Shown here: piece after piece, positions 37,359-59,772 of the stretch | How positions within the stretch are numbered: the first letter of the stretch is position 1 | Layout of the letters: each line of letters starts with the position of its first letter | From: Myxococcota bacterium | GTDB taxonomy: Bacteria; Myxococcota_A; Bradymonadia; UBA4248 | NCBI GenBank assembly: GCA_045599245.1 | Contig: JAZRVP010000136.1 | Location: forward strand, 34,555-98,554 | DNA length: 64,000 nt | Reading direction: 5' to 3' | Translations under genes and position numbers: made by a program | The notes under the pieces: model-generated | Seen by the model: the letters and a program-made list of their open reading frames with translations, nothing else | Told to the model about the DNA's origin: nothing | The model's database searches: none

Positions 37359-37463
37359 TGTGAATGGCGATTAATTTCTTGCTTTTACAGGATATGAACA
37401 AAAGATTTTGATAGAGTGAGATGAGTTGTTTGTGCGCCCTGATGAATAAACTTGGGAGAAAAC

Positions 37464-42896: not shown

Positions 42897-45800
42897 TTAC
42901 TTCAGCCACGGAATGTTCACTGTGCTCCCGTTCTTTTCGCTGAATTTCTTCATCGTACTGGACCATGGAGTCTCGCAGCTTGCATCGGAAGCTTTTGAAC
43001 AGCCAGAGAATGTATTCTCCAGCATGATCGATGTATTGCCGCCTGTCTCAAGAGCAAGTGACGCGGCATCTGGAGAAAGACCTCTAAATTCGGGTTCTCC
43101 ATCCCTGCCCATGAAATTCAACTTCGTTGCCTTATCATTCTTATTATCGCGTTTAAGCCAGAATACATTTTTATTTGTCGCCAGCTTCAAATGGTAACGC
43201 AAATCGTCCGGATTAGAATCATCCACCAACTCGACAATACCGTCCGGAACATTATTAAACAGATAATATGAATCGTGAGCAACCGTTGGACTCTTTGCCA
43301 AACCATCGGTATCCGTCGAGGAAAATCTATTAAATCTTACGCCTGAAAAGACATTTTCAAGTGAAAGTTTGCCAGAAATTGCATCAAACAGACCAGCAAT
43401 ATTAGCATTTGATTTTGAATAAACATCGGCATAGTAAACAAAATCTTTCAATGCCACATCATTATTACCAATAGCAAAAATTCCAAAATGTTTTGTTGCT
43501 ATAACATAAGGAATTGCAACAGCCATACGCTCGATTTTGCCGCTTAAATTATTCACGACGCCAACATATCCATCGGGAGCAAGCACTCTGTCGATGACGA
43601 TTTTGACATCGGAAACATTGCTTCCTTCATCAACATCGGAGAACACCATCGAACGATACGAACCCGCAACCTTCACATTTCCTATATGAGCGTCAATATC
43701 TTTAAGTGTACAACCAGACTTGACTTCTCTAACCAGGCCATCCAGGTCACCTTTATAGCTCTCACTGCCGGTTATGGTAATATCGCCAATCTTCAAATTG
43801 ACTTTTTCAAGTGAAGCATTGTTGTTGGAACATGTATTTGCCAAGCCTACGACATAATACGGCGTCGAAATGTTGCCAATCGAAATTGAAACATCAGACA
43901 TCTGTCCGGAATAATTACGACTGATACCGTTGAAATATCCATCAGCATAAGTCGAAACTTTTTTACCACTCTGCGTCACATTTCCCATTTGAATGGAAAC
44001 ATTATTAAGGCTGGCATTGGCAATTTCATTTGCAATGCCATAAACTTCCTTAACATTAGAAATATTACCGATTGAAATCGTTGTTTTATCAGCAATATTT
44101 AATGAATCCTTAGCTAATTTTTCAGCCAAACCATAATATTTTCCACTCAAATTCAAATTTTCGGTCTTGATATCCAGTGAATTCAAGGAATTATTAGAAA
44201 TCGTTTTAGCATACCCATAATAATTAGCTGCCTTAATATCATTGGCTTGTAATTTTGCTGCGCCAGAGATCGTTACATTCGATAAGCTCGTCGCGCCGCC
44301 ATAATAATCGCCGGTTGTCGAAATATTATTGATCACGCGTTTAAAATCACCGGAAACAGAAACCTTCTCAACACTAGATAAAGATGCAACAGTCGATGTC
44401 GCTGTAATATCATTCACTGATATCTCAACATTACCTTTGTGTTCAACCTGACTAACCTTCGTATCTGCAACAGAATAGAAATTACTGGATGAAACATCAT
44501 TGATTTTAATTTTGATATCACCAGATGACGTGACATTACTAATCTCTTTGATGAAACAAACCGGAGACTTGTCGACAAGCATATCTCCAATTTCAACATT
44601 TAAGCCACCGACGAGATTGGTACGTTCCATTTTCCAACCAAGCATTTCAACCGTCCCGGAATCACCATAGATTCTCGAAGCATTAACGCTCGGTGCAATT
44701 AACCATGAATCGGTTGTCGTAAATGCCAAAGCCTTCAAAAGACGATTCTTAATCAAAGCATAATCCGGTATTTCAACAGATGCCTTGCTCACAACACTCG
44801 AATCGATTGTACCAAAAAGACCATTGAAACCATTATTGACAGTACAATTACTCAGTGTGCAATTATCGGTAACATTACCTTTGAACTTGACATTGCGATA
44901 TTGGTTACCATAAGCATCTAACTCAGCTTCGGTCATAATGGAAAATTGATAGGGTTTAGTATCTTTAATCGTGTTTCCATCAATGAAACTTGCATCCATA
45001 CCGAGAATTGGACGCGATTCAAGGTTGATATTGCCGTTTACGGCAATGTCGGAAATGTTGGAAGCCACAATATTCGTTGCAAATACAGAACCGCCAACAC
45101 CACGAACTGAGTAGTTTAACGTCAGATTGCGAACATTGGACTCATTGATTGTGCCAAAGAATGAATCGACGAGAGAACAAGATTTGCCGTCTGCATTCTT
45201 AAAGAAAATGCGGTGATTATTGCCATCGAAATCGACGTGATCGAGCACAATGGGTTCCCAGCGAGCTACGCAAGTCGCATCAGGAATTTCAAAGGGTTTA
45301 TAATCCGAGTCTGTCGTCTTATGAATGACGACTGTCGTCGTTGTGGTGCATTCTCCGCCTTCGGTGTTCTCGCCGCCTTCGGTATTCTCGCCGCCTTCGG
45401 TGTTTGCACAACCTTCGCCGCTTTCAGTCACAATGATTTCCGGCCAATGCGTTTTAATCGCTTCAAACGGAAAATCTTTAATATCTTCTTCGCCGTATGC
45501 TTTTGAAAGATCGACATCTTTCATCAAACGAACGGTAAACGTTGTCTCATGTGATATTTCACAAATGGAAGACTTGCCGTCCGGAATGTCACATCCACCG
45601 CATTCTTTGACTTCAACTACGCCATTATTGCAAACTGCAGCGGATTTTCCATCGGAAGAGCAAACATCGACATAAGTCTCCGGATCGCAGCAATCGCCTT
45701 CGGCGAGTGTGGTAGCATCTTCAGCTGGCACATTGCAGGTGTTGCAGTTCGTCTCGCCGCAACCGTAGCCACAGGCTTCTTCGACGACGATGCCGTCTTG

Positions 45801-47792
45801 ACAGCTCAGATATTTATCATCAGCACAAACAGAAACGAATTCCTCCGCAATACAGCAGTTGCCTGCGACCAGTTCCGCACCCTCTTCTGCAACGACACAT
45901 TTTGCACACGATTTATCGTCGCAGCCATACGCACACGTCTCTTCAACGGCAATGCCTTCTTTGCAATAAACCAACGTTCCCTCACTGCAATAAGGCATGA
46001 ATTCATCATTGACGTCGCAGCAATCGCCACCTTTCGGCTCATCATCTTCATCGATGACGCGGCACAAACTGCAACTGTTGTTCAAACAACCAAGTTCACA
46101 TTGTTCAGAGACAATCTTGCCGTCTTTACAAACCAGCAAATTGCCATCAGCACAAACAGGGGCAAACGTTTCCGTACTGCAGCAGTCACCGACAGCGGGA
46201 TCAGCATCTTCGGCAGTCACGGTACAAGCAATGCATGCATTTTCGCCGCATCCAAGCTTGCAATTTTCCTCGACAATGGCGCCATCGACGCAAACCGTAG
46301 CTTTGTCATCTGTACACGTCCCAACATAAGAGGCAGCATCACAGCAGTTACCGACACCGGGATCAGCCCCTTCCTCAGGCTCTGTACAAGCCGTGCATGT
46401 ATTTTCACCGCATCCAAGCACACAATCTTTTTCGACCACGACGCCATCGACGCAAACCAGGGCCTTGTCATCGGAACACGATCCAGCAAAAGCGGCTTCA
46501 ACACAGCAGTCACCCACTGCCAAATTTTCATTATCAGCCGGCACGTTACAGGCAGGCTTCGTTCTATCTTTAGCGAGCTCCACACGAAGACGTTCAAAAT
46601 CTTTTGCATGCCAAATTTCGAAAATCCGGTTGCCGTCCTCATCCGTCACGTAGTTGCAGTCAGTCATTGCATCATCCGTGATATTCGGATTGTATGGACA
46701 AACATCCTCGCTGTCTGCAACGCCATCCTGGTCGGCATCCTCTTCGGGCATTTCAACACAAGCGTTTTTCAAACAGGCATGATTTTCAGGACAATCTTCA
46801 TTGGACAAACATGCATAACAACGGTTGTCCGCTGGATCGCACTTTTTGTCGTCCGAGCAATCGACATCGGCTTCGCATTCAAGTTTGCATGCATTTGAAA
46901 CACAGATTTCGTTTCCGGAACAGTCACTGTTTTCTTTGCACTGAACACAAACAGAGTCTGCGCAAAGCGGCTTATCCTGGGAGCAGTCATCGGACGCCGT
47001 ACTGTCACTACATTCGGGCACGCAGGCATTCCTTTTACAAACCAAAGCACCAGAACAGTCATCATTTTCGATGCATTCAACACAAAGATTGCTGTCACTG
47101 CATTTTTGTCCGGACGAACAATCGCTCGCGGATTTACAGTCAACACATGCGCCGGACATACAGAAACCGCCTTCGCAGTCGGCATCTTCTTTACAGCCGC
47201 TCATGCACTGGCCTTTGTGACATGTCATTCCATCGCCGGAGCAATCTGACGCCTTCTCGCATTCAGGCACGCATCGACTGTTTTTGCAAAGCAAAGCATC
47301 TTTGCAATCCTCGTCTTTGGCGCATTCCGTCTTGCATTTTCCCTCTTTGCAAACGAGTCCATCCGAACAATCGCCATCTTCGGTGCATTCGGGAACACAT
47401 TTATTCGACTTACAGACGGCATCTGTACAATCGGCATCACCGGAGCATTCCAATACACATCGGCTCTGACGGCAAACCTTGTTGTCTTTGCAGTCAAAAT
47501 CAAATTCACATTCGGCTTTGCATTTGTGATCGGTACAAATCAAACCGCCCGAACAATCGGCATTTTCGTTGCATTCAGGGGCACAAAAGCCATCTTTGCA
47601 AACGTCAGGACTTGAACATTCTGCGTTGGTTGTACACGGAGTCACGCAGGTATTAGTTGTGGTATCACAAGTCTGATTATCGGCACATGCACCATTGCAT
47701 GGTTTTGATTTATCGTCATCACCGCAGCTGTTCAAAGACAGTGCTGCAGTTGCTGCAGCGACAACGACAAAAAGCAAACGAGAGTTTTTCAT
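42897..47792 (-). CDS. Giant Cys-rich lipoprotein with a GLUG-type beta-helix C-terminus (1631 aa)
   Basis: GAGGAG RBS; lipobox LSLNSC; about 11 CxxDxDC repeats; one TSP3 motif (DADQDGVADSEDVCP); six 8-Cys repeats; VRLMKDVDL, WEPI and FDGNNHRI motifs, then Asn/Ser-rich beta-helix repeats. Confidence 0.75.
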   Translation of the reverse strand: MKNSRLLFVVVAAATAALSLNSCGDDDKSKPCNGACADNQTCDTTTNTCVTPCTTNAECSSPDVCKDGFCAPECNENADCSGGLICTDHKCKAECEFDFDCKDNKVCRQSRCVLECSGDADCTDAVCKSNKCVPECTEDGDCSDGLVCKEGKCKTECAKDEDCKDALLCKNSRCVPECEKASDCSGDGMTCHKGQCMSGCKEDADCEGGFCMSGACVDCKSASDCSSGQKCSDSNLCVECIENDDCSGALVCKRNACVPECSDSTASDDCSQDKPLCADSVCVQCKENSDCSGNEICVSNACKLECEADVDCSDDKKCDPADNRCYACLSNEDCPENHACLKNACVEMPEEDADQDGVADSEDVCPYNPNITDDAMTDCNYVTDEDGNRIFEIWHAKDFERLRVELAKDRTKPACNVPADNENLAVGDCCVEAAFAGSCSDDKALVCVDGVVVEKDCVLGCGENTCTACTEPEEGADPGVGNCCDAASYVGTCTDDKATVCVDGAIVEENCKLGCGENACIACTVTAEDADPAVGDCCSTETFAPVCADGNLLVCKDGKIVSEQCELGCLNNSCSLCRVIDEDDEPKGGDCCDVNDEFMPYCSEGTLVYCKEGIAVEETCAYGCDDKSCAKCVVAEEGAELVAGNCCIAEEFVSVCADDKYLSCQDGIVVEEACGYGCGETNCNTCNVPAEDATTLAEGDCCDPETYVDVCSSDGKSAAVCNNGVVEVKECGGCDIPDGKSSICEISHETTFTVRLMKDVDLSKAYGEEDIKDFPFEAIKTHWPEIIVTESGEGCANTEGGENTEGGENTEGGECTTTTTVVIHKTTDSDYKPFEIPDATCVARWEPIVLDHVDFDGNNHRIFFKNADGKSCSLVDSFFGTINESNVRNLTLNYSVRGVGGSVFATNIVASNISDIAVNGNINLESRPILGMDASFIDGNTIKDTKPYQFSIMTEAELDAYGNQYRNVKFKGNVTDNCTLSNCTVNNGFNGLFGTIDSSVVSKASVEIPDYALIKNRLLKALAFTTTDSWLIAPSVNASRIYGDSGTVEMLGWKMERTNLVGGLNVEIGDMLVDKSPVCFIKEISNVTSSGDIKIKINDVSSSNFYSVADTKVSQVEHKGNVEISVNDITATSTVASLSSVEKVSVSGDFKRVINNISTTGDYYGGATSLSNVTISGAAKLQANDIKAANYYGYAKTISNNSLNSLDIKTENLNLSGKYYGLAEKLAKDSLNIADKTTISIGNISNVKEVYGIANEIANASLNNVSIQMGNVTQSGKKVSTYADGYFNGISRNYSGQMSDVSISIGNISTPYYVVGLANTCSNNNASLEKVNLKIGDITITGSESYKGDLDGLVREVKSGCTLKDIDAHIGNVKVAGSYRSMVFSDVDEGSNVSDVKIVIDRVLAPDGYVGVVNNLSGKIERMAVAIPYVIATKHFGIFAIGNNDVALKDFVYYADVYSKSNANIAGLFDAISGKLSLENVFSGVRFNRFSSTDTDGLAKSPTVAHDSYYLFNNVPDGIVELVDDSNPDDLRYHLKLATNKNVFWLKRDNKNDKATKLNFMGRDGEPEFRGLSPDAASLALETGGNTSIMLENTFSGCSKASDASCETPWSSTMKKFSEKNGSTVNIPWLK
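45350..45410 (-). repeat. 18-bp coding repeat (NTEGGE) x3
   Basis: ttctccgccttcggtg / ttctcgccgccttcggta / ttctcgccgccttcggtg. Confidence 0.8.
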
Positions 47793-47811
47793 GTTTTCTC
47801 CTCAGTATGGA

Positions 47812-50800
47812 TCAATATTTTGTAATCAAAGTATCAATAAACAAAGCTGCTCCTTTAGAGCGAACATTGGTTGCTGCTTGTGCACCTTTTCCCGGTTCAG
47901 CGATTTCCGGGTCAGCGATATTATTTCCCGCAGAAACAGAGCCAAAGGCTTCATCGCCGTATTTTGCGACGAGCTCCATTGGCAGAGAAAATCCGCAATT
48001 TTCAAGCGTAAAACGATTCTTAGCACTAAAACACGGTTGTTTGGAAGTTGCTTTATCACAATCATCAATGACATTGCGGTTGCAAGCCAACAGATAGGAT
48101 ACGGCGCGTCCAGCGATACCACCGGCGCCGGCGCCGCCGCCGCCGCCATGACCGCCGGCACCGCCGGCTGTTGCTTTCTGACACTGCCAGTTACCTATCA
48201 AGCCGTTCTGTTCTTCATAACCTTTGGAAGTTCCTGCCTTGCCGCCCAAACCGCCGTCTGCGCCGCTTTGGCCCGTACCACCGGAACCGGCAACGGCATG
48301 GATTTTTGTTCCATCGAGCACAATTTTGCTCTCACCGGTTGTCATAGGCATCAACAAAAGACCAATGGCAGAACCGCCAACGCCGCCGGCTTTTCCGCCT
48401 TCGCCGCCGCAACCGCCGCCGCCGCCGCTTCCGGCATTGGCCCAGGCACTGTCTGCGGCGCCCTTACTAAACATCTGATAGACGGAACCACCGCCGCCGC
48501 CGCCGCCGTTACCACCAATCACACCATGAATATCCGTCAGGTCGGCATAATTATCCTTCACTCTGACGACCATGTCATCTTCAAGCCCAGTGTAATCAAG
48601 CTTCAGATTTGCGCTCGTCCCGTTGACACCATTTGCGCCATCTTCACCTGCCGCACCCGTGCCTTTCGCCAGATCGATATCCCCCTTGTCACATCCACCA
48701 TGCGAAACACCACCACTCACGGTAAGACCTGCACCGCCGGCAGCGCCATCTTCTAATCCTTCGTGATCCGCTCCAGCGGCTCCCGATTTGCCCATCGGCT
48801 CGCCATCATATTTCGTAGACGACACGGTATGCGGTTCAGACCTCATATATCCGGCACAGCCACCCTTGCCGCTGCTGACGCCTCCGCACTTATTGTCATC
48901 CGGACAATACTCCTTTGTATAGGATGAATTAACATCATCATCTGCATGTACAAACCCGTTGATGCCATTCACACCATTCGTACCGACAGCCACTTCTCCC
49001 TGAATATCCATGCCATCCGGAGCCGTGACTGTCATCTCGACATTCGTAAGTAACAGTTCCCGGCATCCCGACTTGCCACATGTCAGACCAATGAGCGTCA
49101 CACCTTCCGTTTTAGTCAGGCCCTCTTTAGACGACATTTCAAATGCAATATCCGATATCGAAAGCGAAAATGACTGACTCACCATCATCGGACGTATCAT
49201 CACATAATACGGATCACTCAAGTTCTCGAGAACCCAACTCTGGCGCGACTTGTCTTTATCTTTATGAACCCACAACAGATTCTGCTCTTCCGGCTTCTGA
49301 TTTGACGTCAATCCGCCATAAATGCGAAAATCCGTCGCCGAAAATGAGCCTTCTTGATAACAGGCATATTGATTGGCTTTAAAATCCTTCACATCTTTCG
49401 ATTTTTGGGCCAAATCCGAATGAAACGCAAACAGGCTTGCAAAGGTCACATCCGAAAGCGGCGCCAGCTGCGTCAGTTTTACAATGCTCTCCTTCTCACT
49501 GCTCGGGATCACCAGACCTTCGGTCAAATTCGCCGTTATTTCCTTGTTGACCAGAATGTCGGGATAAACTGAAAACGCTTTCCCGTCCTCATTGTGATAA
49601 ATAACATTTTTCTTACTTAATGCCGCCTTTATCGTGGCAACTGGCTTCAAACCGACGTTTTCTTCGTATTGTCCGCTATTGCTGTCCGATCCTGAATATG
49701 TGCCCTGAATATCCGGATAGACAAATATCGCCGATTTCAAGTCATAGTCGAAGCCGTCACAGTTTGAATCGATGCCGTCGCCATAAAAATCCCACTCTCT
49801 GGCATGGTACAGAGCAATACACGTCTTCTCTGCCCCATCCTCTACCTCAGATATCGACGGCATCGCGCCAATCCGACACAAATTAATCGATCCATCCGCA
49901 TTGACCGGCCCCTCGTAATCGTCACTTTTCTTATATTCGACGTACGTGTTGTCCGTAATAACACATGGATAACGAATTTCCATCGGCTCATGACAGACAT
50001 TCTGCAGACAAATCAAATCTCCCGTGCAGTCGGTATCTTTACCACATTCGACACACCTTACGCCGTCGCAGACTTTCTTTGTGCCGGTGCAATCCGAATT
50101 CTTCGCGCATTCCGCCTTGCAGACTCTGTCCAAACACATATACGGCGCCGGACAGTCACTCGTGTCACTGCACTGCGTCGTACATTTCTGGTCTTTGCAA
50201 TAGGCCGGTGCCGTACACTCGCTATCGTTCTGACACTCTGGACGACAACGATTTTTACGACAAACAAAACCGTCGGAGCAATCCGCATCTTTTTTGCATT
50301 CCTGAACACACTTCTGTGCCTTGCAAATGAGATTTCCACTGCAGTCTTCATCCCGGTTGCACTGAACATTGGGATCGATACAACGATTATCCGAACAATA
50401 AAGCCCCTTGGGACAGTCCCTATCCGTTTCACAGTTCAACGGATCGATGATGCAGCGAGACTCACTGCAGATGTATGACTGCGGACAATCATCCACGGTC
50501 GAACATACAGGAGACTCCTGACATTTTTTATCCAGGCAGAGCAAACCCTCATCACAGTCATCCTGAGACTCGCAGTCTTTTGCCACGCCGCAAACGCCGG
50601 AAAAGCAATCATATCCATTTGGACACGGCGTTGCTTCATCACACGACGGCGCCTTTTGGCAGCCCCCTTCCACACAAAGCTCACCCGCCACGCAATCCGC
50701 AGCCTTTTCACAACTATTTTCAACCTTGTTTAGGCATTTTCCACCCTGGCACGTCTTTCCGTCCTTGCAGTCCGCATCAGACTTGCACTCAGGCTCTTTC

Positions 50801-51177
50801 TGGGCATCGGCACAAACACCACTCTGGCACGTCTTTCCATCCTTGCAGTCCGCATCCGTCTTGCACTCAGGTTCTTTCGCATCGGCACAAACGCCGCTCT
50901 GGCATGTCTTCCCGTCCTTGCAGTCCGCATCCGTCTTGCACTCAGGCTCTTTCTGCACATTGGCACAAACGCCGCTCTGGCATGTCTTCCCGTCCTTGCA
51001 GTCCGCATCCGTCTTGCACGAATCGTCCAGCGAAACGGCCTCGCAGCTATGGCTTTCAACATTATAGGTCTGCCCCTCCGGACACTTTGGCTCAGAACTC
51101 CCCGAGTCATCATCACAGCCATACACATCAAGACAAGCGACAAGAACACTCGCCAGGAACAGATATTGATATTTCAT
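47812..51177 (-). CDS. Cys-rich lipoprotein, paralogue P1: MopE-like motif plus Gly-rich (PGRS-like) C-terminal module (about 1121 aa)
   Basis: MKYQYLFLASVLVACLDVYGC; about 13 CxxDxDC repeats; WDFYGDGIDSNCDGFDYD; GGxGGxG tracts with GGCGGEGG. Confidence 0.75.
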   Translation of the reverse strand: MKYQYLFLASVLVACLDVYGCDDDSGSSEPKCPEGQTYNVESHSCEAVSLDDSCKTDADCKDGKTCQSGVCANVQKEPECKTDADCKDGKTCQSGVCADAKEPECKTDADCKDGKTCQSGVCADAQKEPECKSDADCKDGKTCQGGKCLNKVENSCEKAADCVAGELCVEGGCQKAPSCDEATPCPNGYDCFSGVCGVAKDCESQDDCDEGLLCLDKKCQESPVCSTVDDCPQSYICSESRCIIDPLNCETDRDCPKGLYCSDNRCIDPNVQCNRDEDCSGNLICKAQKCVQECKKDADCSDGFVCRKNRCRPECQNDSECTAPAYCKDQKCTTQCSDTSDCPAPYMCLDRVCKAECAKNSDCTGTKKVCDGVRCVECGKDTDCTGDLICLQNVCHEPMEIRYPCVITDNTYVEYKKSDDYEGPVNADGSINLCRIGAMPSISEVEDGAEKTCIALYHAREWDFYGDGIDSNCDGFDYDLKSAIFVYPDIQGTYSGSDSNSGQYEENVGLKPVATIKAALSKKNVIYHNEDGKAFSVYPDILVNKEITANLTEGLVIPSSEKESIVKLTQLAPLSDVTFASLFAFHSDLAQKSKDVKDFKANQYACYQEGSFSATDFRIYGGLTSNQKPEEQNLLWVHKDKDKSRQSWVLENLSDPYYVMIRPMMVSQSFSLSISDIAFEMSSKEGLTKTEGVTLIGLTCGKSGCRELLLTNVEMTVTAPDGMDIQGEVAVGTNGVNGINGFVHADDDVNSSYTKEYCPDDNKCGGVSSGKGGCAGYMRSEPHTVSSTKYDGEPMGKSGAAGADHEGLEDGAAGGAGLTVSGGVSHGGCDKGDIDLAKGTGAAGEDGANGVNGTSANLKLDYTGLEDDMVVRVKDNYADLTDIHGVIGGNGGGGGGGSVYQMFSKGAADSAWANAGSGGGGGCGGEGGKAGGVGGSAIGLLLMPMTTGESKIVLDGTKIHAVAGSGGTGQSGADGGLGGKAGTSKGYEEQNGLIGNWQCQKATAGGAGGHGGGGGAGAGGIAGRAVSYLLACNRNVIDDCDKATSKQPCFSAKNRFTLENCGFSLPMELVAKYGDEAFGSVSAGNNIADPEIAEPGKGAQAATNVRSKGAALFIDTLITKY
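50733..51018 (-). repeat. Near-identical coding tandem repeats (CK(T/S)DADCKDGKTCQSGVCA..KEPE) x4
   Basis: GTCCTTGCAGTCCGCATCCGTCTTGCACTC-type unit recurs every 69-75 bp. Confidence 0.9.
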
Positions 51178-51227
51178 TTTTTCCCTTATCATCAGCAAAA
51201 TGACAAATGCATTTTCGTTTTTGTGGC

Positions 51228-51295
51228 GTCGGACTATGCCTTTCGGCATACGCCCGACCAGTTTTGCTATGGGGACAAATCCCCATACGCAAAAC
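51228..51295. repeat. Two bulged-hairpin copies between P2 and P1
   Basis: GTCGGACTATGCC-TTTC-GGCATA(C)GCCCGAC and GTTTTGCTATGGGGA-CAAA-TCCCCATA(C)GCAAAAC. Confidence 0.8.
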
Positions 51296-51321
51296 AGCCA
51301 CTCTTATATGATTCGCGCTGA

Positions 51322-54300
51322 CTACTCAATAACTGCCATATAAATTATTTGAGGCTCACCAGTCACCGGATTGAGACATGTTCTATCGGCATCACCAACC
51401 GTCATTGGAATATCGACCGTACCTGTCTTGCCACCTGCTGCGACGCCGCAGGTTTTCGTCGAACTGGCGCGCAGAATATTTTTCTTTCTTGTGCCGCCAT
51501 TGCCGCTCTTTTGACCATACGCAGTATCTCTCATCGTCAACCCGTTGAGATACTGACTGGCATAGTCCCCGGGTTTCTTGATCAAATGATCCGAAAACGT
51601 AAAGCCACAATTGCCTAATGATTTCGAATCCACAAACTTATCACTTGAAACACCGAATGATCGCGGACAAATGGCAACGATGGGATAAGCCCAACCTGCT
51701 TTTCCGCCGGCGCCTGCGCCCCCGCCGCCACCGGCCCCACCGGCTCCGCCACTGGCAAGACGCTGACACTGCGTATCACCACCAAACGCACCCTCGCGAG
51801 CATACAACAAAGCCTCACCACCATTGGCACCATCGCCACCCAAACCACCAGCCTGTGCACGACCACCACTTCCGTTGTAAACGGCAATAGCGTCCTTATC
51901 TGCGCTGTGATTGAACTCAATTCGGCTGCTATCCGCGCCTTTTCCACTTGAACGAACCGCAATACCAATCGCTGAACCACCCGTACCACCGGCAAATCCA
52001 CCTTCACCGCCGCATCCACCGGCTCCGCCTGAGGCAGCATAACACTGCGTATGGTCTGATCCCTTGCCCATCCAGCAACGAAATACAGCGCCGCCTCCAC
52101 CGCCTACACCGGGAAGGCCATACTTTCCTTTCGACTTCGTTCGATCACTCCTCACCCAAAGCCCTTCACTGGTTTCGGTAAATCCCATGATCGTGTTTTT
52201 GCTTGCACCATTTTCACCATTGGCACCGCCAACGCCATTCTCGCCTCGATAATTATCCCTCTCATTCGAACACGCCGTATCAAGGTCACAACTTTCATCA
52301 AAAAATACACCGCTTCCACCCGAAGACTGACTCTGATTAATAGTATTACCCAATCTATCCCTTGAAGCAAGCGAAGGACGTCCGTCCAACTTATCTCTAT
52401 AATGCCCGCCCTGATACGACTTGCCATATCCCCCTATGCCGCCCAGACTTTGCGTCAGAGCATTGGCAGTCCATTCATAGCCGCACAAATAATCTTTATC
52501 TTTGTTGAAGGCGTTATTATCATAAATGATAATATAATCATTATTATCAGCAGTCACATTATGTTCATCACGCACAGCATTTGAGCCAGCCATTGCCCCA
52601 TTCGTTCCATTCATGGCATGACTCAACTCATTCGACGCATTGAACTCCGGATATGAATACCCCGCAATCCCCACAACTTTGATTGTCGTATCAGTGAGCA
52701 GAAGTTCTTTCACCCCGCCAACGGTTCCATCAATGCCGATAAACGTGACGCCATCCGCAAACCCAACGGGGAGAGTAAAATTTACTTTCGGAGACATATT
52801 CAGACTAAAGTTCATCATCGCCAAAGAAAGCGGATACTTCCCACTTTCCGGAGACACCAGCGAATATACCATGCGAGGGTCTTTGACATTCGATGTGTAA
52901 AAGTCGTCAACGACCCAATCCACTTGTGTCGGCACTTCTTTATCAATTTGCCAAAGATCGTGTTCCGCCGTCAAAACCGCTTTTTCAACAGTTTTACGTT
53001 GAAAACCGCCATAAATCCTAATCAATCCATCCGGCTGATTGCGCTCTGTCTGGGCAGCTTTTTCATATTTGCACACACCGGCATCGTCACATTTTTCGTC
53101 ATAATAGCTAAACAAATATTTATTCGGATCAAATTCCGCATTTTTTATCATGTTAATAGCCAACTGCGAATGAAGCCCGTACGCACTGATTATTTTGCCA
53201 TCCTTAACCATCCCGGCTTTATTCGGAAGTTTCGACGCATCGAAATTATAGAATTTTGCAACAATATTGGACGGCTCCGATACAGGAACTCGTATGGGCG
53301 ACTTTTGAACATCCATCTCTTCGCTTGTCACCGAATACACGCCTGTTTCAACAACAATATCATGATAGAAATTCTTATCCGAATCTTTGGCTGCCGCCAT
53401 TGCCTTATTAATCGTCAAAAATGTCTTGGCACCATTTTCAATATTCTCTTTTTGTGACACAAATACTGTATGATTGGTATCATAATCCGCACCGTCACAG
53501 TTCGCATCAATGCCGTCGCCATAAAAATCATATTCTCTCGGCGTATATATCGGAAAACATTTATTCTCTTTTACATAACCAATTTGACATATATTAATAG
53601 ATCCATCTCCATTTTTTAACAATTTATAGGAACCAGCAGTCGCATCGGAATAAGTTTGATATGAAGCTGAACCTACACCGGCCTTGAGCTGCTCATAAGG
53701 CGCCAGTTTCGTAATGACACACGGCACAACATCTATTACCTCATCGATAATACAGCTCCCTTCTGAACATACTTTGCCATCCTCACAATCTTCATCCGCT
53801 GCACACGTCTTTTCTTCGGATGACGGCTTGCAAACACCTTCTACACACACATTGCCATCCTCACAATCTTCATCCGCTGCACACGTCTTTTCTTCGGATG
53901 ACGGCTTGCAAACACCTTCTACGCACGCCTTGCCATCCTCACAATCCTCATCCGCTGCACACGGCTTTTCTTCGGATGACGGCTTGCAAACACCTTCTGC
54001 ACACACATTGCCATCCTCACAATCCTCATCCGCTGCACACGGCTTTTCTTCGGATGACGGCTTGCAAACACCTTCTACGCACGCCTTGCCATCTTCGCAG
54101 TCGGCATCCGACATACACTCTGGATCGGAAGACGTTTCACAGACTCCGGACTTGCAAACCTTGCCTTCGCCGCAGTCCGCATCCGTCGTACAAGTTGTTT
54201 CGACCGTTCCGGGTTCACATTGTTTTGTATCACTATTCATAACCTGCCCATCCGGACAAGTTTTGGAAGTGTCACCAGACTCATCACCGCATCCAGCCAT

Positions 54301-54351
54301 ACCCAAACATGCGGCAAGAATACTCGTCATAAACAAATAACGCGTTTGCAT
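51322..54351 (-). CDS. Cys-rich lipoprotein, paralogue P2 (1009 aa)
   Basis: GAGGAGA RBS; lipobox GMAGC; CAADEDCEDG repeats; YDFYGDGIDANCDGADYD; Gly-rich module. Confidence 0.78.
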   Translation of the reverse strand: MQTRYLFMTSILAACLGMAGCGDESGDTSKTCPDGQVMNSDTKQCEPGTVETTCTTDADCGEGKVCKSGVCETSSDPECMSDADCEDGKACVEGVCKPSSEEKPCAADEDCEDGNVCAEGVCKPSSEEKPCAADEDCEDGKACVEGVCKPSSEEKTCAADEDCEDGNVCVEGVCKPSSEEKTCAADEDCEDGKVCSEGSCIIDEVIDVVPCVITKLAPYEQLKAGVGSASYQTYSDATAGSYKLLKNGDGSINICQIGYVKENKCFPIYTPREYDFYGDGIDANCDGADYDTNHTVFVSQKENIENGAKTFLTINKAMAAAKDSDKNFYHDIVVETGVYSVTSEEMDVQKSPIRVPVSEPSNIVAKFYNFDASKLPNKAGMVKDGKIISAYGLHSQLAINMIKNAEFDPNKYLFSYYDEKCDDAGVCKYEKAAQTERNQPDGLIRIYGGFQRKTVEKAVLTAEHDLWQIDKEVPTQVDWVVDDFYTSNVKDPRMVYSLVSPESGKYPLSLAMMNFSLNMSPKVNFTLPVGFADGVTFIGIDGTVGGVKELLLTDTTIKVVGIAGYSYPEFNASNELSHAMNGTNGAMAGSNAVRDEHNVTADNNDYIIIYDNNAFNKDKDYLCGYEWTANALTQSLGGIGGYGKSYQGGHYRDKLDGRPSLASRDRLGNTINQSQSSGGSGVFFDESCDLDTACSNERDNYRGENGVGGANGENGASKNTIMGFTETSEGLWVRSDRTKSKGKYGLPGVGGGGGAVFRCWMGKGSDHTQCYAASGGAGGCGGEGGFAGGTGGSAIGIAVRSSGKGADSSRIEFNHSADKDAIAVYNGSGGRAQAGGLGGDGANGGEALLYAREGAFGGDTQCQRLASGGAGGAGGGGGAGAGGKAGWAYPIVAICPRSFGVSSDKFVDSKSLGNCGFTFSDHLIKKPGDYASQYLNGLTMRDTAYGQKSGNGGTRKKNILRASSTKTCGVAAGGKTGTVDIPMTVGDADRTCLNPVTGEPQIIYMAVIE
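53764..54160 (-). repeat. 78-bp coding tandem repeat (CAADEDCEDGxxCxEGVCKPSSEEKx) x4-5
   Basis: TTTTCTTCGGATGACGGCTTGCAAACACCTTC recurs with a 78-bp period. Confidence 0.92.
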
Positions 54352-54365
54352 AAGTTCTCCTCATT

Positions 54366-54433
54366 TTTTTCACAGCGTCCCTTCTGGATGCACAACATTA
54401 TTTTTCACGGCGTCCCTTCTGGATGCACAACAT
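54366..54433. repeat. Direct duplication with a 35-bp period in the P2 leader
   Basis: TTTTTCAC(A/G)GCGTCCCTTCTGGATGCACAACAT x2 with one mismatch. Confidence 0.92.
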
Positions 54434-54539
54434 AAAAAAATTTCGCTTCATACCAATACAACATATACCTTATTATCTAAGAAATCATAGTATTATTATC
54501 TATAACCTTCTGATTTTGGGTTACATCTCAGGCAGGGGA

Positions 54540-54726
54540 AGTTCACAAATCTTCTGAAAAGAGTATTTCGCAAATATAAGGCAGTAATTGTCGAGAGCCG
54601 GGTTTGGAACCCTAACGGGTAAAATGGTTAGGCAACCCAAAAGGCTTATGCCATCTAAAAATATTGAGGTTTCCAAAGGGCTCAGCCCTTTGGCAGGGTC
54701 CGGGGCAGAGCCCCGGATAAGTAACG
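54540..54726 (+). mobile_element. Modular MITE-like element, copy C
   Basis: GTTCACAAATCTTCTGAA...TATTTCGCAAATATAAGGCAG...CCATCTAAAAATATTGAGGTTTCCAAAGGGCTCAGCCCTTTGG...GGGGCAGAGCCCCGG.TAAGTAAC. Confidence 0.65.
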
Positions 54727-54728
54727 AT

Positions 54729-54841
54729 AAAAAAAAAGCCTGGCGTATTGACCCAAAGGTCAATAGCCAGGCTTAGAAGGGCGTATCGGCCCAAAGGCCG
54801 ATAGCCCGAACAAATGGCGTGCCGGTTCTGCCGGCAGCCAT
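54729..54841 (-). terminator. Three bulged hairpins after the 1639-aa gene; the last on the minus strand carries a T9 tail
   Basis: AAGCCTGGC(G)TATTGACC-CAAA-GGTCAATAGCCAGGCTT preceded by A9; further copies at 54779-54807 and 54814-54841. Confidence 0.75.
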
Positions 54842-54852
54842 GTCACAACCTC

Positions 54853-57800
54853 TTAGATATCATATTTGCATTTTGATGCATCCTGACCATTGCTGCCCGT
54901 CGTGTATTTGAACTGAACTTCAATGTCTGCGACGTTATCCCAGTTGATACCGGCATTTTCGCCTGCATTCGGATCGAAGACGATCGTGTAGGTCGCCATC
55001 AACGGGAAATTGGCCAAACCGTTGTAAACCGTGACTTCGGAGAAGTCGGTATTGTCGCTCAGTTTATAATTACTGCCTTCTTCAACATTGTACATACCGG
55101 CGGTAAGACCATCGCTGAACGGATCGGTCATGAAGGTCGAAACTTTACCAAAGGACGTACGGGAACCAATCGAATTGGCGATGGCTTCGATGTTGGAGTG
55201 GCAGGAAATGAGCTGGCTCTGGCCGCCGTAGAACAACGAAACGGAGGGTTTGGCATCACCGCTTTCGCGAATGCGTTTGCCTTCTTTGCTGACGAAACGA
55301 ACGCGGATTTCGGAAATCTTCGCATTGCAGGAAGTTGCAAGGTTTGCAAATTTCGAATTGAGATTGAAGGAACCGCTGTAGAATTCGCCTTTCTTGAGCA
55401 TGTCACCCGCATTGCCATCGACGGAATAACGCGTCATAGCGCTGACAGGAAGGGCACCGGCTTTCAGGATGGTATGGAAACGATCGGCAGCGGAAACGCC
55501 ATCGATATCGGCATCGCCTACACCAATGCGGTTGCGAAGTGAAACCGTAACCGTGTTGTCGGATCCCTTGCCGGAACCGCAGTTATCGCTCAAGTCATTG
55601 AGCTGTTCTTTCAGAACCTTGAGGTCATTTGTACCGCGAGCCGTGTAAATCGAACGACGAATTTCAACGAACGGACGAACCGTCATGTATTCGATGGCCG
55701 TCAGGTAGTCATTGAGATCGTTGCGTGCAAACTCGATGTATTTCTCAGCGAGTTCGAGATCGCTGGCATGCTGGAAGAATTTGGAGGCCGAGAAGGTGAC
55801 GTCGTTGAGGGCTTTGTAGCGTTTGAGTTTATTGTTGTACTGGTCGGCAACGAGTTCAGCTTCCTGAGCAATTGTCAGATAATTGACGAGAGCACGGGCA
55901 CGGGCAAGTTCTTTGATCTTGACGTTGTAAGCAAGTGTCACGAGATCGAGGGCCGCATTGGCAAAATCATTGCGCATCTGCTGAAGCTCCTGAAGATCGC
56001 GTTCATACTTCTCCTGGTTCTCATTGCTGAGTTTAAGGGTCTGGATGGCGCCTTCGAGTTCTTTGATCTTCGCCTCAAAGTCCTCTTTCTGCCCCTCAAC
56101 TTTGCCCTTGGAAGTGGACACAGTCACCTTGAGATTGTTCAGCGTCTCCTGAAGTTTGGCTGCACTGTCAGCCGCATTCTTGGATTTTTCTCGATCATAC
56201 AATTCGATGGAGAACGCCGTCGCCTTTTCGGTAATGCCGGCAGCTGCAGCTGCACCTGCTTCAACCGTCTGGAGAACTGTTTTCGCTGTACCGAGTGCAG
56301 CTGATGCAGCCTTAGCCGAAATGCTAGCTGTCAAATTTGCCGCCCCAGCCCCCATACCGATGGAGTTCGTATTGTTTAAAATCCCCTCCAAATACTGGTG
56401 TTGAATTTCCTGTTCTGCATCTTGAATCGAATTATCAAGATAAATACCCGAGATATTGTTGGCAGCCTGAGCAAGTGTGTAAGCTTCCTGGAAAGCGAGG
56501 TTCGAACCGGCGGCACCTTTCCATTTGCTGAAGTTATCCTTTTCAGCCTCGTACGCATTCTTAAGACTCTTGAGCTGTTCTTCGGCCTCCGCAGAGCTAA
56601 ACCCGGCGATCCCTTCCATATACTTATTGATATCAGCCAAATTCGTTGAAATGCTATCAATCATCTTGGTACGCTGTTCGTGCCAGCTATTGATGGCTGC
56701 TTCATACGCATTGGCGGTGTTGTCATTGTTGGCAACTTTCTGGCGAAGGACTTCGTATTCAGCCATCGCCGTTTCATATTCCTGCTGTGCCTGACGATAG
56801 TCGAGAATGGCAGAACCGGCCTTGCTGTTGACCGTACCATCCATGCTGACAGGATTGGATTCAAGGGCGAGGTTACCACCGCAAGCCGCCATCACTTCTT
56901 CTGCCGATCCAGGCTGAAGTTTTTCTGAGCAGTTGCTGTAATTAACAACCTGCTGAATCTTTATCATATTGTCGCTGCCGCCTTCCTGCGTCAAATCAAC
57001 TTTTGCTTTTGTCTGAGAATTAACGCTGAAACCACAGAAATACGGTGCAGTATAAATCTGACATGTCTGGCGATCTTCCGGTGTCGTGCAGTCTGCCGGA
57101 TAACCGCAAAGAGAAACGAGCTGCGCACGAAGGGCTTCAAGAGCTGTCAAATAATTGTCATTGTTCTGAAGTTTTGAAATCTCTTCATCATCCAGTGTTT
57201 TCAGGATCTTGTCGAGTTCCGTTTTCGCCGTATCCACCGAATTCGTCGCATTTTGATCCAGCTTCTTGAGGGCATCGGTGATTTTTTCTTCCGTCAGGCT
57301 CGTATTTCTAAAGATTTCACCATCTCGCATGAATACAAGTGATTCAAATGACTGATCGAGGGACGCAATCTTGGAAATCGTGTCATTGAGATTCGCACCG
57401 TATGTCCCGTTGAGAGAACCCTGATCTGCATTCAGGTTGATCTTTGATTCAATAAGGCCGGCAAAATACAGATCGAAGAGCAGAGGACGAAGTTCCCTGG
57501 CCGCTTTTAGCCTTGCGGAATCGTTCTGTGTCAATACATCGTGACGGCGAGCGCTCAAGGCCATGGCTTCTGCCACCGACTGCCACGTCTGAGCCATTTC
57601 ACTCAGAATTGCATTTCGGTTGCTGGTCAACTCGCTCACGCTGTCGGCATTCGCGCTGCCGACAACCGTCTGAGAAAGCATTTCAAGCGTCGTCTGCGTA
57701 AACTGTTTCGTCATGACATCATACTGACGACCCAAAACGTCCTTGTTGTAACGAGCCAGCAAATCCGAGTTGAAATCATTGAGAATTGATGCCGCAAATG

Positions 57801-59772
57801 TTCCCTCATACGTTGCACCGCCAAGCCATTCCTTGCGAATTTCGGTATCGCTGTTCCAGGCAAGATATTCTTCGGCAAGATAAGATTCTCTCATCATACC
57901 CAGCCATTTGTTCATGGCATCGGCTTTTTCATCGTCGGTGGTCAGTGTATTGGACAGATATTTGCGCGCAATCAGATCCGCACCACACAAAAGTTCCGGA
58001 CGATCATCGCAAATTCCGCAGGTGGAGTCTGCACATTTCGTCGCAAAATCATTGAAGTTGTTGATACCGCCGCAAACATCGACAAGCGTTTCTCCCGAAG
58101 ACGGAGCGGACTGGGTCAGAACGGTTTCGAGTATCTTCGACAGTCTGGTTTTGTCATTCAATATGTAGCTGACACCCGTGTTCACACAGAACCAGCGATC
58201 ATCTTCATCCAACGCATTATATTCATCCAACGTGATACTGGAGCCGCTTCCCGTCGAACTCAACTGGCATTTTGTAAGTTTGTCATCGCACGCCGCTTTC
58301 TCATCCTCATCCTCGATATCCTTACACATTGAAGGATCAATGGCACCAATCAACTTTTTAATATCATTAAACGTACAGACATCTTTTGGTGCTTCATCGA
58401 TACCTCGAATGACTTCACTCGCCACCGCATGATCTGAAGATGCCAATTCCGCATCCATACCATACGAACGTTTCACCGAAATGGTTCCGGTCATATCGGT
58501 CGAATGATAAACCGGCCTCACGTTGTCACCTTCGATTTCATTTTCGCGGTAAAGACCGATCATGTGATCCGTGATAATGCCATCCAGCGCATGCGATGAG
58601 GCATCATAATTATTGAATTCAATTCTCATGCTTCGGCTCATCTTTTCATCAGCCGAAACCAGCTTGCTGCCTTTAAATACGAAATCATTCGACGCAAACT
58701 TAGCCACAAAGCTCGGTTTTTTCGAGGTTGTCACTGCAGCGTCTTCTTTCGCCAGTTCGACCTTTACCCAGGTGTTACGGTCATTTCCACTTTCATCCAC
58801 CGTCGATTCCGGCGAGAAAATATCGCTCGGGCTTACCGGCATGTAGAGCGTCATTTTTTCAATGGCGTTGAAATCGGCAGGCTTCGCGGGAACGGTCTCG
58901 ATGTACATACGAATGGGAAGCGGCGTTCCTGAAAGAATATCAGGGGTCACATTTCCTTCATAGTAACCGGAGGCATCCTGCGGATCGATCATGAGAATGG
59001 GGAAATCGCCGGCATTCGATACGATTTCAACCATTTCAGAATTCAGGCTGTCATTCAATCCGTCACGAAGTCTCGCTCTCTTGGCGCGAATCTTCGACGC
59101 ATCGATATCAAACTTATACGTATAGCCGCCGTTACCTTCTACGGCTTTTGCCGATTTCAGAACGGGAATTTCGCTGTCATTCGTTTTGACTGCGTAGAAA
59201 ACCTTTCCCAGTGATTTTTCCGCGACAAACTGTGTCGTCTGTTTGCTGTCGGAACCAAGCGTCGCAACCTGCGGCACGGCTTCCATGATGTTGATCGAAT
59301 TGACAACGCCATTTTTGCCATCATCCTGACCGATAACGCTGCGTACAACGTTTGTCTCTTTTTTGGCCATAAACTCGAGATCGAGAAGAAGCTTTGATTT
59401 CTCTTCGGCCTTCATATCGGAGGCAGAAGCGATCTTGTCATTGACGCTCTGAACTTCTTTCAAATATGCTTCAGTCACACAGCGACCGCGTGTCGCCTGG
59501 CAATAATAGCCGTCTTCACATCCAAGCTTATTTCCATCGCACTGCATAACGCACTGATTCTGGAAGCAGAATGATCCCGTCTGACAGTCCGTATCGAGCA
59601 TACAGCCTCGATTGGAATTCATGCTCATCTCGTACAGAGCCTGACCTGTGGTTGTTATTTCTTCTTGCGGATCCGGATCCACAACAGGCTTTTTATCTTT
59701 GGAATCATCGCTACAGGCACCTGCCACGAAAGCAAGCATCGCTATTACTGACATAAAACGCAGTTTATTCAT
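54853..59772 (-). CDS. Giant coiled-coil lipoprotein with a TcA-like C-terminus (about 1639 aa)
   Basis: GAGAGG RBS; MNKLRFMSVIAMLAFVAGAC; short Cys-rich domain; beta-rich region; long heptad helices around an Ala/Gly hydrophobic stretch; C-terminal KISEIRVRF...FPLMATYTIVFD...INWDNVADIEVQFKYT. Confidence 0.7.
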   Translation of the reverse strand: MNKLRFMSVIAMLAFVAGACSDDSKDKKPVVDPDPQEEITTTGQALYEMSMNSNRGCMLDTDCQTGSFCFQNQCVMQCDGNKLGCEDGYYCQATRGRCVTEAYLKEVQSVNDKIASASDMKAEEKSKLLLDLEFMAKKETNVVRSVIGQDDGKNGVVNSINIMEAVPQVATLGSDSKQTTQFVAEKSLGKVFYAVKTNDSEIPVLKSAKAVEGNGGYTYKFDIDASKIRAKRARLRDGLNDSLNSEMVEIVSNAGDFPILMIDPQDASGYYEGNVTPDILSGTPLPIRMYIETVPAKPADFNAIEKMTLYMPVSPSDIFSPESTVDESGNDRNTWVKVELAKEDAAVTTSKKPSFVAKFASNDFVFKGSKLVSADEKMSRSMRIEFNNYDASSHALDGIITDHMIGLYRENEIEGDNVRPVYHSTDMTGTISVKRSYGMDAELASSDHAVASEVIRGIDEAPKDVCTFNDIKKLIGAIDPSMCKDIEDEDEKAACDDKLTKCQLSSTGSGSSITLDEYNALDEDDRWFCVNTGVSYILNDKTRLSKILETVLTQSAPSSGETLVDVCGGINNFNDFATKCADSTCGICDDRPELLCGADLIARKYLSNTLTTDDEKADAMNKWLGMMRESYLAEEYLAWNSDTEIRKEWLGGATYEGTFAASILNDFNSDLLARYNKDVLGRQYDVMTKQFTQTTLEMLSQTVVGSANADSVSELTSNRNAILSEMAQTWQSVAEAMALSARRHDVLTQNDSARLKAARELRPLLFDLYFAGLIESKINLNADQGSLNGTYGANLNDTISKIASLDQSFESLVFMRDGEIFRNTSLTEEKITDALKKLDQNATNSVDTAKTELDKILKTLDDEEISKLQNNDNYLTALEALRAQLVSLCGYPADCTTPEDRQTCQIYTAPYFCGFSVNSQTKAKVDLTQEGGSDNMIKIQQVVNYSNCSEKLQPGSAEEVMAACGGNLALESNPVSMDGTVNSKAGSAILDYRQAQQEYETAMAEYEVLRQKVANNDNTANAYEAAINSWHEQRTKMIDSISTNLADINKYMEGIAGFSSAEAEEQLKSLKNAYEAEKDNFSKWKGAAGSNLAFQEAYTLAQAANNISGIYLDNSIQDAEQEIQHQYLEGILNNTNSIGMGAGAANLTASISAKAASAALGTAKTVLQTVEAGAAAAAGITEKATAFSIELYDREKSKNAADSAAKLQETLNNLKVTVSTSKGKVEGQKEDFEAKIKELEGAIQTLKLSNENQEKYERDLQELQQMRNDFANAALDLVTLAYNVKIKELARARALVNYLTIAQEAELVADQYNNKLKRYKALNDVTFSASKFFQHASDLELAEKYIEFARNDLNDYLTAIEYMTVRPFVEIRRSIYTARGTNDLKVLKEQLNDLSDNCGSGKGSDNTVTVSLRNRIGVGDADIDGVSAADRFHTILKAGALPVSAMTRYSVDGNAGDMLKKGEFYSGSFNLNSKFANLATSCNAKISEIRVRFVSKEGKRIRESGDAKPSVSLFYGGQSQLISCHSNIEAIANSIGSRTSFGKVSTFMTDPFSDGLTAGMYNVEEGSNYKLSDNTDFSEVTVYNGLANFPLMATYTIVFDPNAGENAGINWDNVADIEVQFKYTTGSNGQDASKCKYDI

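Follow-up and report, generated by a model that had tools for sequence, protein, structure and literature searches.

To our knowledge, the Tc (ABC) toxins are the only known carriers of a syringe-like alpha-helical translocation channel; they are known to us almost only from gamma- and betaproteobacteria and a few Firmicutes, and always together with TcB and TcC. Here we analyse a gene from a Myxococcota bacterium, located on the minus strand at 54853..59772 of a 64,000-nucleotide stretch of contig JAZRVP010000136.1 (hereafter the window), which an earlier note, made from the sequence alone, had described as encoding a lipid-anchored, stand-alone TcA-like putative pore former. At the level of profile and predicted-fold similarity, the C-terminal ~650 residues of its product are shown to be a remote homologue of the channel and TcB-binding module of the Tc A subunit (TcA), while the N-terminal two-thirds are, as judged from sequence, unrelated to the TcA shell. 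The family defined by this protein holds a TcA-type translocation module, yet it falls outside the TcA family under the current definition.

The relationship to TcA is detectable only at the profile-profile or structure level. Pfam, NCBIfam and phmmer searches, the last against all PDB sequences, gave no meaningful match for the window protein. Using hhalign, we compared an 80-sequence family profile with a TcA C-terminal profile built from SepA (the TcA of Serratia entomophila pADAP) and 20 diverse Tc A-subunit relatives. The two aligned over 447 collinear columns (Prob 86%, P=4.7e-6), pairing family residues 1008-1627 with SepA 1885-2371 and reaching both C-termini, as did the C-terminal domain alone (Prob 82%, P=1.1e-5). 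The score of 58 dropped to 18-21 when either one of the profiles was reversed (P 0.19-0.4) and recovered when both were (P=1.1e-6); 30 block shuffles of the TcA alignment reached scores of 20-31 (P 0.011 or worse). When the family was represented by 8 sequences, the hhalign alignment was confined to the final 47 residues (P=0.024 for the TcA profile and 0.29 for SepA alone), showing that the TcA signal is visible only with the 80-sequence profile.

The peptides quoted in the earlier note are all present in the translation of 54853-59772, and most of the likenesses to TcA that it drew from them, which go beyond chance, were recovered by the profile pairing. The Ala/Gly-rich segment (IGMGAGAANLT...AAAAAG, residues 1138-1178, nucleotides 56239-56361), which had been placed at about 56200-56385, lies at the tip that pairs with the TcA tip (MLPNIYGLAVGGSRYGA in SepA). 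TVSLRNRI (residues 1409-1416) pairs with the TVSL segment of TcA, CNAKISEIRVRF, in the region of KISEIRVRF (residues 1485-1493), with RRIKqISVsLP, and WDNVADIEVQFKYT with LsDIILHIRYT; the C-terminal motifs FPLMATYTIVFD and INWDNVADIEVQFKYT occupy residues 1589-1600 and 1609-1624. The exception is LELAEKYIEFARNDLNDYLTAIEY (residues 1339-1362), for which the proposed LELAEKY pairing is shifted by ~25 residues.

Structure prediction gave the same answer. An AlphaFold model of residues 975-1639, built as a single chain from the 80-sequence alignment, reached a pLDDT of 78.6, with the C-terminal domain above 90. In a Foldseek search of 350,542 PDB chains with this model, the top 20 matches were all TcA subunits (XptA2, XptA1, TcdA1, TcdA4, TcaA-TcaB and YenTcA, from Xenorhabdus, Photorhabdus, Morganella and Yersinia), with E-values between 4e-11 and 3e-5 across 630-685 columns. 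The next match was polyomavirus VP1 at 1.5e-3 and generic coiled coils were weaker still, leaving 5-8 orders of magnitude between TcA and such coiled coils. An initial model from 8 sequences (pLDDT 51), since replaced by the 80-sequence model, also had only TcA subunits in its top 18 matches. The earlier note's proposal was to fall if the TcA channel and TcB-binding domain found no counterpart by profile or by structure; both kinds of match exist, and the C-terminal third does follow the TcA order that the note had read from the sequence.

The model predicts a long helical hairpin at residues 984-1326 (55795..56823, minus strand), with ~130 residues running down and ~165 running up, which aligns by hhalign and Foldseek with the TcA pore-forming (channel) domain. 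In the numbering of the modelled fragment, the helices span H10-78, H84-140, the tip, H186-246, H252-277 and H279-352, corresponding to 69 and 57 residues before the tip and 61, 26 and 74 after it. The tip is flanked on both sides by predicted helices of 57-74 residues, giving the long hairpin with a charge-poor tip expected of a TcA-like channel. A helix-plus-beta-sandwich domain follows at residues 1330-1639 (54856..55785). This domain is modelled with pLDDT >90, is better conserved across the family than any other part of the protein and, on the hhalign and model evidence, is remotely homologous to the TcB-binding domain of TcA.

The tip itself (residues 1115-1164, 56281..56430, pLDDT <50) aligns with the TcA tip and overlaps the Ala/Gly-rich segment. 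Family-wide, charged residues account for a fraction of 0.09-0.13 at residues 1131-1160, compared with ~0.3 in the flanks, and small residues make up as much as 49%. For the best 19-residue hydropathy, the family median is 1.17, similar to the median of 1.29 for 21 TcA tips, while the flanking family helices score 0.49-0.58. The hydrophobic hairpin that the earlier note had singled out is therefore upheld in part: the segment is present and its low charge, small-residue composition and length are kept, while its sequence is poorly conserved.

Set beside TcdA1, XptA1/2, TcdA4, SepA, YenA1-A2 and TcaA-TcaB, the last ~650 residues of the family share the order of elements: a helix down, a charge-poor Ala/Gly-rich tip, a helix up and a helix-plus-beta-sandwich domain ending in ...D(I/V)x(L/V)x(I/F)xYT at the C-terminus. 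TcA subunits are the best and only strong PDB structural matches of this module. Sequence identity is only ~12-15%, and the family escapes PF18276. The window protein has 1,639 residues, in line with the ~1640 given in the earlier note, whereas TcA has about 2,400-2,500. It lacks the VRP1, ABC_toxin_N, neuraminidase-like and receptor-binding (RBD) domains (PF20220, PF18413, PF18518 and PF03538 were not found by Pfam), in contrast to SepA, which carries PF20220, PF18413 and PF03538. The target also differs in its predicted signal peptidase II (SPase II) signal and lipid anchor, in its conserved disulfide-type cysteines and in having no adjacent tcB/tcC; sepA adjoins holin and lysozyme genes. 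Finally, the family is found in Myxococcota, whereas 96% of Tc loci are from Proteobacteria and 3% from Firmicutes (PMC7861908).

The gene lies within a single open reading frame (ORF) spanning 54853..59907 (minus strand), with the stop codon at 54853-54855. Its first ATG, at 59907, would give 1,684 residues, and the ATG at 59772 gives a 1,639-residue product beginning MNKLRFMSVIAMLAFVAGAC. A start at the latter position, with the same signal peptide, is common to six of seven close homologues; the seventh, P0008, has no signal peptide. GAGAGG sits 6 nucleotides 5′ of this ATG, within a Shine-Dalgarno region read as AGAGAGGTGG (59776..59785), and the lipobox cysteine, Cys20, is invariant in 70 aligned family members. 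On these three grounds we take 59772 as the start, and the ATG at 59907 was rejected. The N-terminus, MNKLRFMSVIAMLAFVAGA followed by Cys, is an SPase II-type signal peptide ending in a lipobox (residues 1-20, 59713..59772; ...FVAGA before the predicted lipidated Cys20, with Ser at +2), and lipobox-type N-termini occur in nearly all full-length family members. As far as sequence allows, this supports the protein being a lipid-anchored lipoprotein, as predicted in the earlier note.

That note had also remarked on a Cys-rich N-terminus and a disulfide-rich middle, and family conservation bears out the cysteines of both. Residues 57-98 (59479..59604) form a putative Cys-rich knot whose eight cysteines are each invariant or ≥90% conserved in the 70-sequence alignment. 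The knot and the DUF7107/Cys repeats of the giant lipoproteins encoded alongside are modules of one type (BLASTP to the neighbour modules, E 2e-4 to 1e-3), DUF7107 being detected in those neighbours. A conserved N-terminal domain follows at residues 160-450 (58423..59295), with the motifs LPIRM, IFSPE and GLYRE; it has no Pfam or PDB-sequence match. The conserved middle region (residues 466-915, 57028..58377) carries the motifs LFDLYF and SLDQxFExLVFMRDGE and ten conserved, probably paired cysteines (C466, C502, C529, C580, C588, C596, C889, C895, C904 and C913). It holds the position of the TcA shell, yet has no detectable similarity to it. When the full family was aligned by hhalign with the C-terminal 1,200 residues of TcAs, nothing upstream of residue 868 was significant, leaving the idea that the N-terminal two-thirds are a diverged TcA shell without support. 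Residues 920-975, ahead of the hairpin, are an insertion of the clade to which the window protein belongs, with 57-76% gaps across the family; most members have ~20 residues there.

A word-indexed search returned just seven relatives of the protein, full-length and at 39-47% identity, and a further such search with the 70-sequence alignment recovered known close relatives only. An exhaustive HMMER search with the C-terminal domain identified 121 clusters (at 50% identity) among 1.84 billion cluster representatives. About 80 of these are full-length (1,400-1,750 residues) with the domain at the extreme C-terminus, and they are conserved along their full length at 18-50% identity. The genome matches and named members are all from Myxococcota metagenome-assembled genomes (Myxococcales UBA4248, Sandaracinaceae and Polyangiales), and every named member is labelled ‘hypothetical protein’. 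Conservation peaks at residues 1340-1620. The helical stretch at 1040-1240 is poorly conserved in sequence, with its length kept and few gaps. As far as an alignment can show, the whole protein is under selection along its length.

On balance we favour a reading in which the protein is exported by Sec and SPase II, anchored by lipid in the envelope and equipped with a TcA-related module, so that it would act as a cell-anchored, contact-dependent device that perforates membranes or translocates cargo, rather than as a released toxin. Several observations weigh against this. The direct test proposed earlier, a match to PF18276, was negative, with no hit up to E 10 in the window protein and its seven close homologues, while SepA, the positive control, scored 3.6e-51. 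Family profiles of 8 and 70 sequences retrieved coiled-coil noise only from PDB sequences. The Foldseek TM-scores are only ~0.2 with a root-mean-square deviation (rmsd) of ~54 Å, so that the likeness to TcA holds for local structure and for the collinear order of elements but does not extend to a superposition of the whole; the overall geometry of TcA is not recovered by the monomer model, and long helices inflate scores of the Foldseek type. No segment is less conserved or modelled with less confidence than the tip, which P0008 almost lacks and which, in the window protein itself, is only mildly hydrophobic (hydropathy 0.92). The long unfolded linker of TcA, an entropic spring that drives injection, has no clear counterpart in the family. 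The lipoprotein may also face the periplasm rather than the outside.

Some of these points would also suit a non-pore structural or adhesive surface protein, consisting of a coiled-coil stalk and a beta-sandwich head, whose likeness to TcA reflects an old shared fold or convergence. Besides the low TM-scores and the weak hydrophobicity of the tip, such a protein would fit the secondary Foldseek matches, which are jelly-roll capsid proteins and coiled coils, and the Cys-rich stalk modules, which resemble myxobacterial adhesin/receptor repeats (TIGR04201 in the neighbours). We nevertheless judge it improbable, as the collinear match spans the hairpin, the tip and the C-terminal domain and survives the reversal and shuffle controls, TcA matches are separated from generic coiled coils by the wide margin in E-value given above, and the charge-poor tip is kept family-wide at TcA-like levels.

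We compared the gene neighbourhood in the window with that of 28 related loci, 9 from genomes and 19 from metagenomes (~360 kb in total); the metagenome scan used an alignment of 9 closer sequences as query. In 17 of the 29 loci, a gene that we denote C1 lies directly adjacent on the same strand, and this arrangement is kept among family genes that share as little as 18% and as much as 50% identity. The C1 products, giant lipoproteins of 940-1,790 residues, have Cys-rich repeats, PF11617 MopE-type motifs, a conserved central region and a Gly-rich C-terminus. In the window, the upstream partner is a C1 giant Cys-rich protein with a MopE-type motif (60155..63997, minus strand; PF11617; C1 HMM 5.5e-24), which is probably cut off by the window end and whose homologues directly adjoin family genes in three loci (L001, L003 and L007). 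Downstream, on the same strand, are a C1 giant lipoprotein with DUF7107 repeats and a lipobox N-terminus (51322..54351; C1 HMM 7.4e-19) and a second one (47812..51249; C1 HMM 1.4e-37, profile positions 545-1103). In all, four giant Cys-rich proteins (DUF7107, Myxo_Cys_RPT or MopE) flank the target on the minus strand at 42897-54351 and 60155-63997; three of the four have a lipobox and three of the four belong to C1. A tandem 33-nucleotide direct repeat (54366-54433, 97% identical, 35-nucleotide spacing) lies directly 5′ of the downstream C1 start codon at 54351. The neighbours were considered as paralogues of the target and rejected, since only the Cys modules are common to both. C1 proteins showed no sequence similarity to solved structures. 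We also considered whether C1 might be a disguised TcB/TcC, which was rejected at the available sensitivity (hhalign P 0.6-0.8, no phmmer matches to SepB/SepC and no Pfam RHS domain).

Two further arrangements recur among the related loci. Tandem family paralogues, in two to four copies, occur in at least 10 loci (L004, L006, L007, L012, L014, L015, L021, L024, L026 and L028), and the called tandem genes overlap by 4 nucleotides in L014, L015 and L026, suggesting translational coupling and possibly hetero-oligomers. The window locus has a single family copy. In eight loci, a gene denoted C2, encoding an OmpA/TSP3 protein of ~500 residues, lies directly downstream of family genes (L014:15525-17120, L026:12776-14284, L015:9480-10922, L019, L020, L021, L027 and L029); there is none in the window locus. 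Because conserved partners exist, namely the giant Cys-rich lipoprotein family, the tandem paralogues and a TraB-like OmpA protein, the description of the protein as stand-alone does not hold.

The constancy of these partners could also be explained if the proteins formed an envelope conduit for the cell's own use. A TcA-like tube would then span the periplasm or outer membrane and export or surface-expose C1, with the OmpA/TSP3 protein anchoring it to peptidoglycan and no attack taking place. Consistent with such a conduit, the target and its C1 neighbours are all predicted lipoproteins, their same-strand adjacency is strict across the range of divergence given above, a peptidoglycan-binding OmpA partner is found in the eight C2 loci, and no cocoon or toxin gene is present in the loci examined. 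The ~130 residues per predicted hairpin arm would moreover correspond to ~195 Å, near the width of the periplasm. However, a TcA-type channel in secretion is without known precedent, C1 proteins of 1,000-1,750 residues with many disulfides would have to pass through unfolded, and the window locus has no C2 gene, so that we regard this explanation as unlikely.

The earlier note had seen no TcB or TcC nearby, and this extends to every locus that we compared: SpvB, TcdB and RHS domains were not found in the large ORFs of the window, nor were YD motifs or phmmer matches to SepB/SepC in the window and the 28 related loci. This bears on a further alternative, that the protein is a highly diverged true A subunit with orphan BC partners, serving as the delivery subunit for RHS/YD-shell or teneurin-like lipoprotein toxins encoded elsewhere. 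The domain homologous to the TcB-binding funnel is the family's most conserved part, lipoprotein teneurin-like YD-shell toxins without obvious delivery machinery occur in over 20% of Myxococcota (PMC13018210), and classical systems include orphan tcC genes (PMC7861908). Against these points stand the lack of any RHS/YD or SpvB/TcB similarity across the ~360 kb and the fact that the actual conserved partner is C1, which has no similarity to SepB or SepC; to us this alternative appears very doubtful.

The teneurin-like YD-shell toxins are nevertheless an instructive comparison, being likewise lipoprotein-anchored relatives of Tc components in the same phylum (PMC13018210), and theirs was the only paper on Tc toxins in Myxococcota found in our literature search. 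On the Tc machine, these toxins correspond to the B/C side and the present family to the A side; the two have no sequence relationship and were not co-located in any locus examined. A second comparison is with the outer-membrane-exchange proteins TraA and TraB of Myxococcus, also a myxobacterial pairing of a surface protein carrying Cys-rich repeats with an OmpA/TSP3 partner. TraB is the best NCBIfam match of C2, and Myxo_Cys_RPT repeats occur in the C1 neighbours. However, the C2 match reaches 88 bits against an equivalog cut-off of 700 and is confined to the TSP3/OmpA part. Furthermore, the target has no PA14 domain or MYXO-CTERM, the window has no C2, and TraA has no TcA-like module.

If the protein is indeed a cell-anchored, contact-dependent device, a mechanism can be proposed by analogy with TcA. 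The C-terminal ~650 residues of the family share an ancestor, as profile and fold similarity show, with the translocation module of the Tc toxin A subunits. In that module, a helical hairpin of ~200 Å bears a tip of low charge and leads into the ‘TcB-binding’ domain, which forms the funnel. Several protomers (TcA uses five) would bring their C-terminal domains and hairpins together as an alpha-helical tube, whose tip would enter a lipid bilayer. The N-terminal ~975 residues, with their Cys knot, conserved domain and Cys-stapled middle, would replace the shell and receptor-binding domains of TcA and hold the device on the outer membrane of the producer. The conserved funnel would dock a partner other than an RHS cocoon, for which the neighbouring C1 lipoproteins are the likeliest candidates, joined in many relatives by a second tandem paralogue and the TraB-like OmpA/TSP3 anchor. 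A bolder proposal, which we put forward as a tentative possibility, is that Myxococcota have domesticated the Tc channel as a lipid-anchored, cell-bound machine without an RHS cocoon. Acting with the giant Cys-rich lipoprotein, and in many lineages also with a second paralogue and the TraB-like peptidoglycan anchor, it would perforate, or deliver material into, the membrane of contacted prey or kin.

The regions flanking the gene hold further features. A terminator-like hairpin with a T-run follows the upstream gene (60083..60110, minus strand; AGACGTCC-GAAA-GGACGTCT then T8); it was read from the sequence and is absent from the terminator-scan list, and it suggests that the target is transcribed from its own promoter. 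A 25-nucleotide element (GGCATACGTCAGGCAT...) occurs twice in the 5′ intergenic region (59943-59967 and 60023-60047, 80 nucleotides apart), each copy inside a short palindrome, and may be an operator or a REP-like element. Rfam and tRNA searches found no non-coding RNA or tRNA in the 3′ intergenic region. The source organism is found in gut metagenomes, and four metatranscriptome contigs map within the gene, pointing to its expression. In gut metagenome run X2, contig depth was 43-71 at 54203-55136, with many loose ends, compared with ~6.7 over the rest of the gene; this may mark a locally repeated or strain-shared segment near the 3′ end and in the intergenic region. Otherwise the window carries the genes of an ordinary chromosome, among them gyrB, lon, secA and one for a Ser/Thr kinase. 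A 1,306-residue ORF on the plus strand (37452-41372) has no Pfam match and a weak NCBIfam match, far below cut-off, to the gliding-motility lipoprotein CglD (E 1.4e-5).

These findings describe a protein architecture and gene neighbourhood that are new and unannotated in databases, built around a module that current annotation pipelines do not recognize. The family has retained the channel and funnel of the Tc toxins, with a predicted lipid anchor in place of release as a soluble complex, another N-terminal body and other conserved partners. This makes the channel older and more modular than thought, and the family a minimal, shell-less version in which to study it. The family also bears on how the lipoprotein YD-shell toxins of Myxococcota (PMC13018210) are delivered, and it could supply a membrane-active component in the contact-dependent behaviours of this phylum. 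Should the proposal of a domesticated Tc channel prove true, the machine would represent a new type of contact-dependent envelope apparatus.

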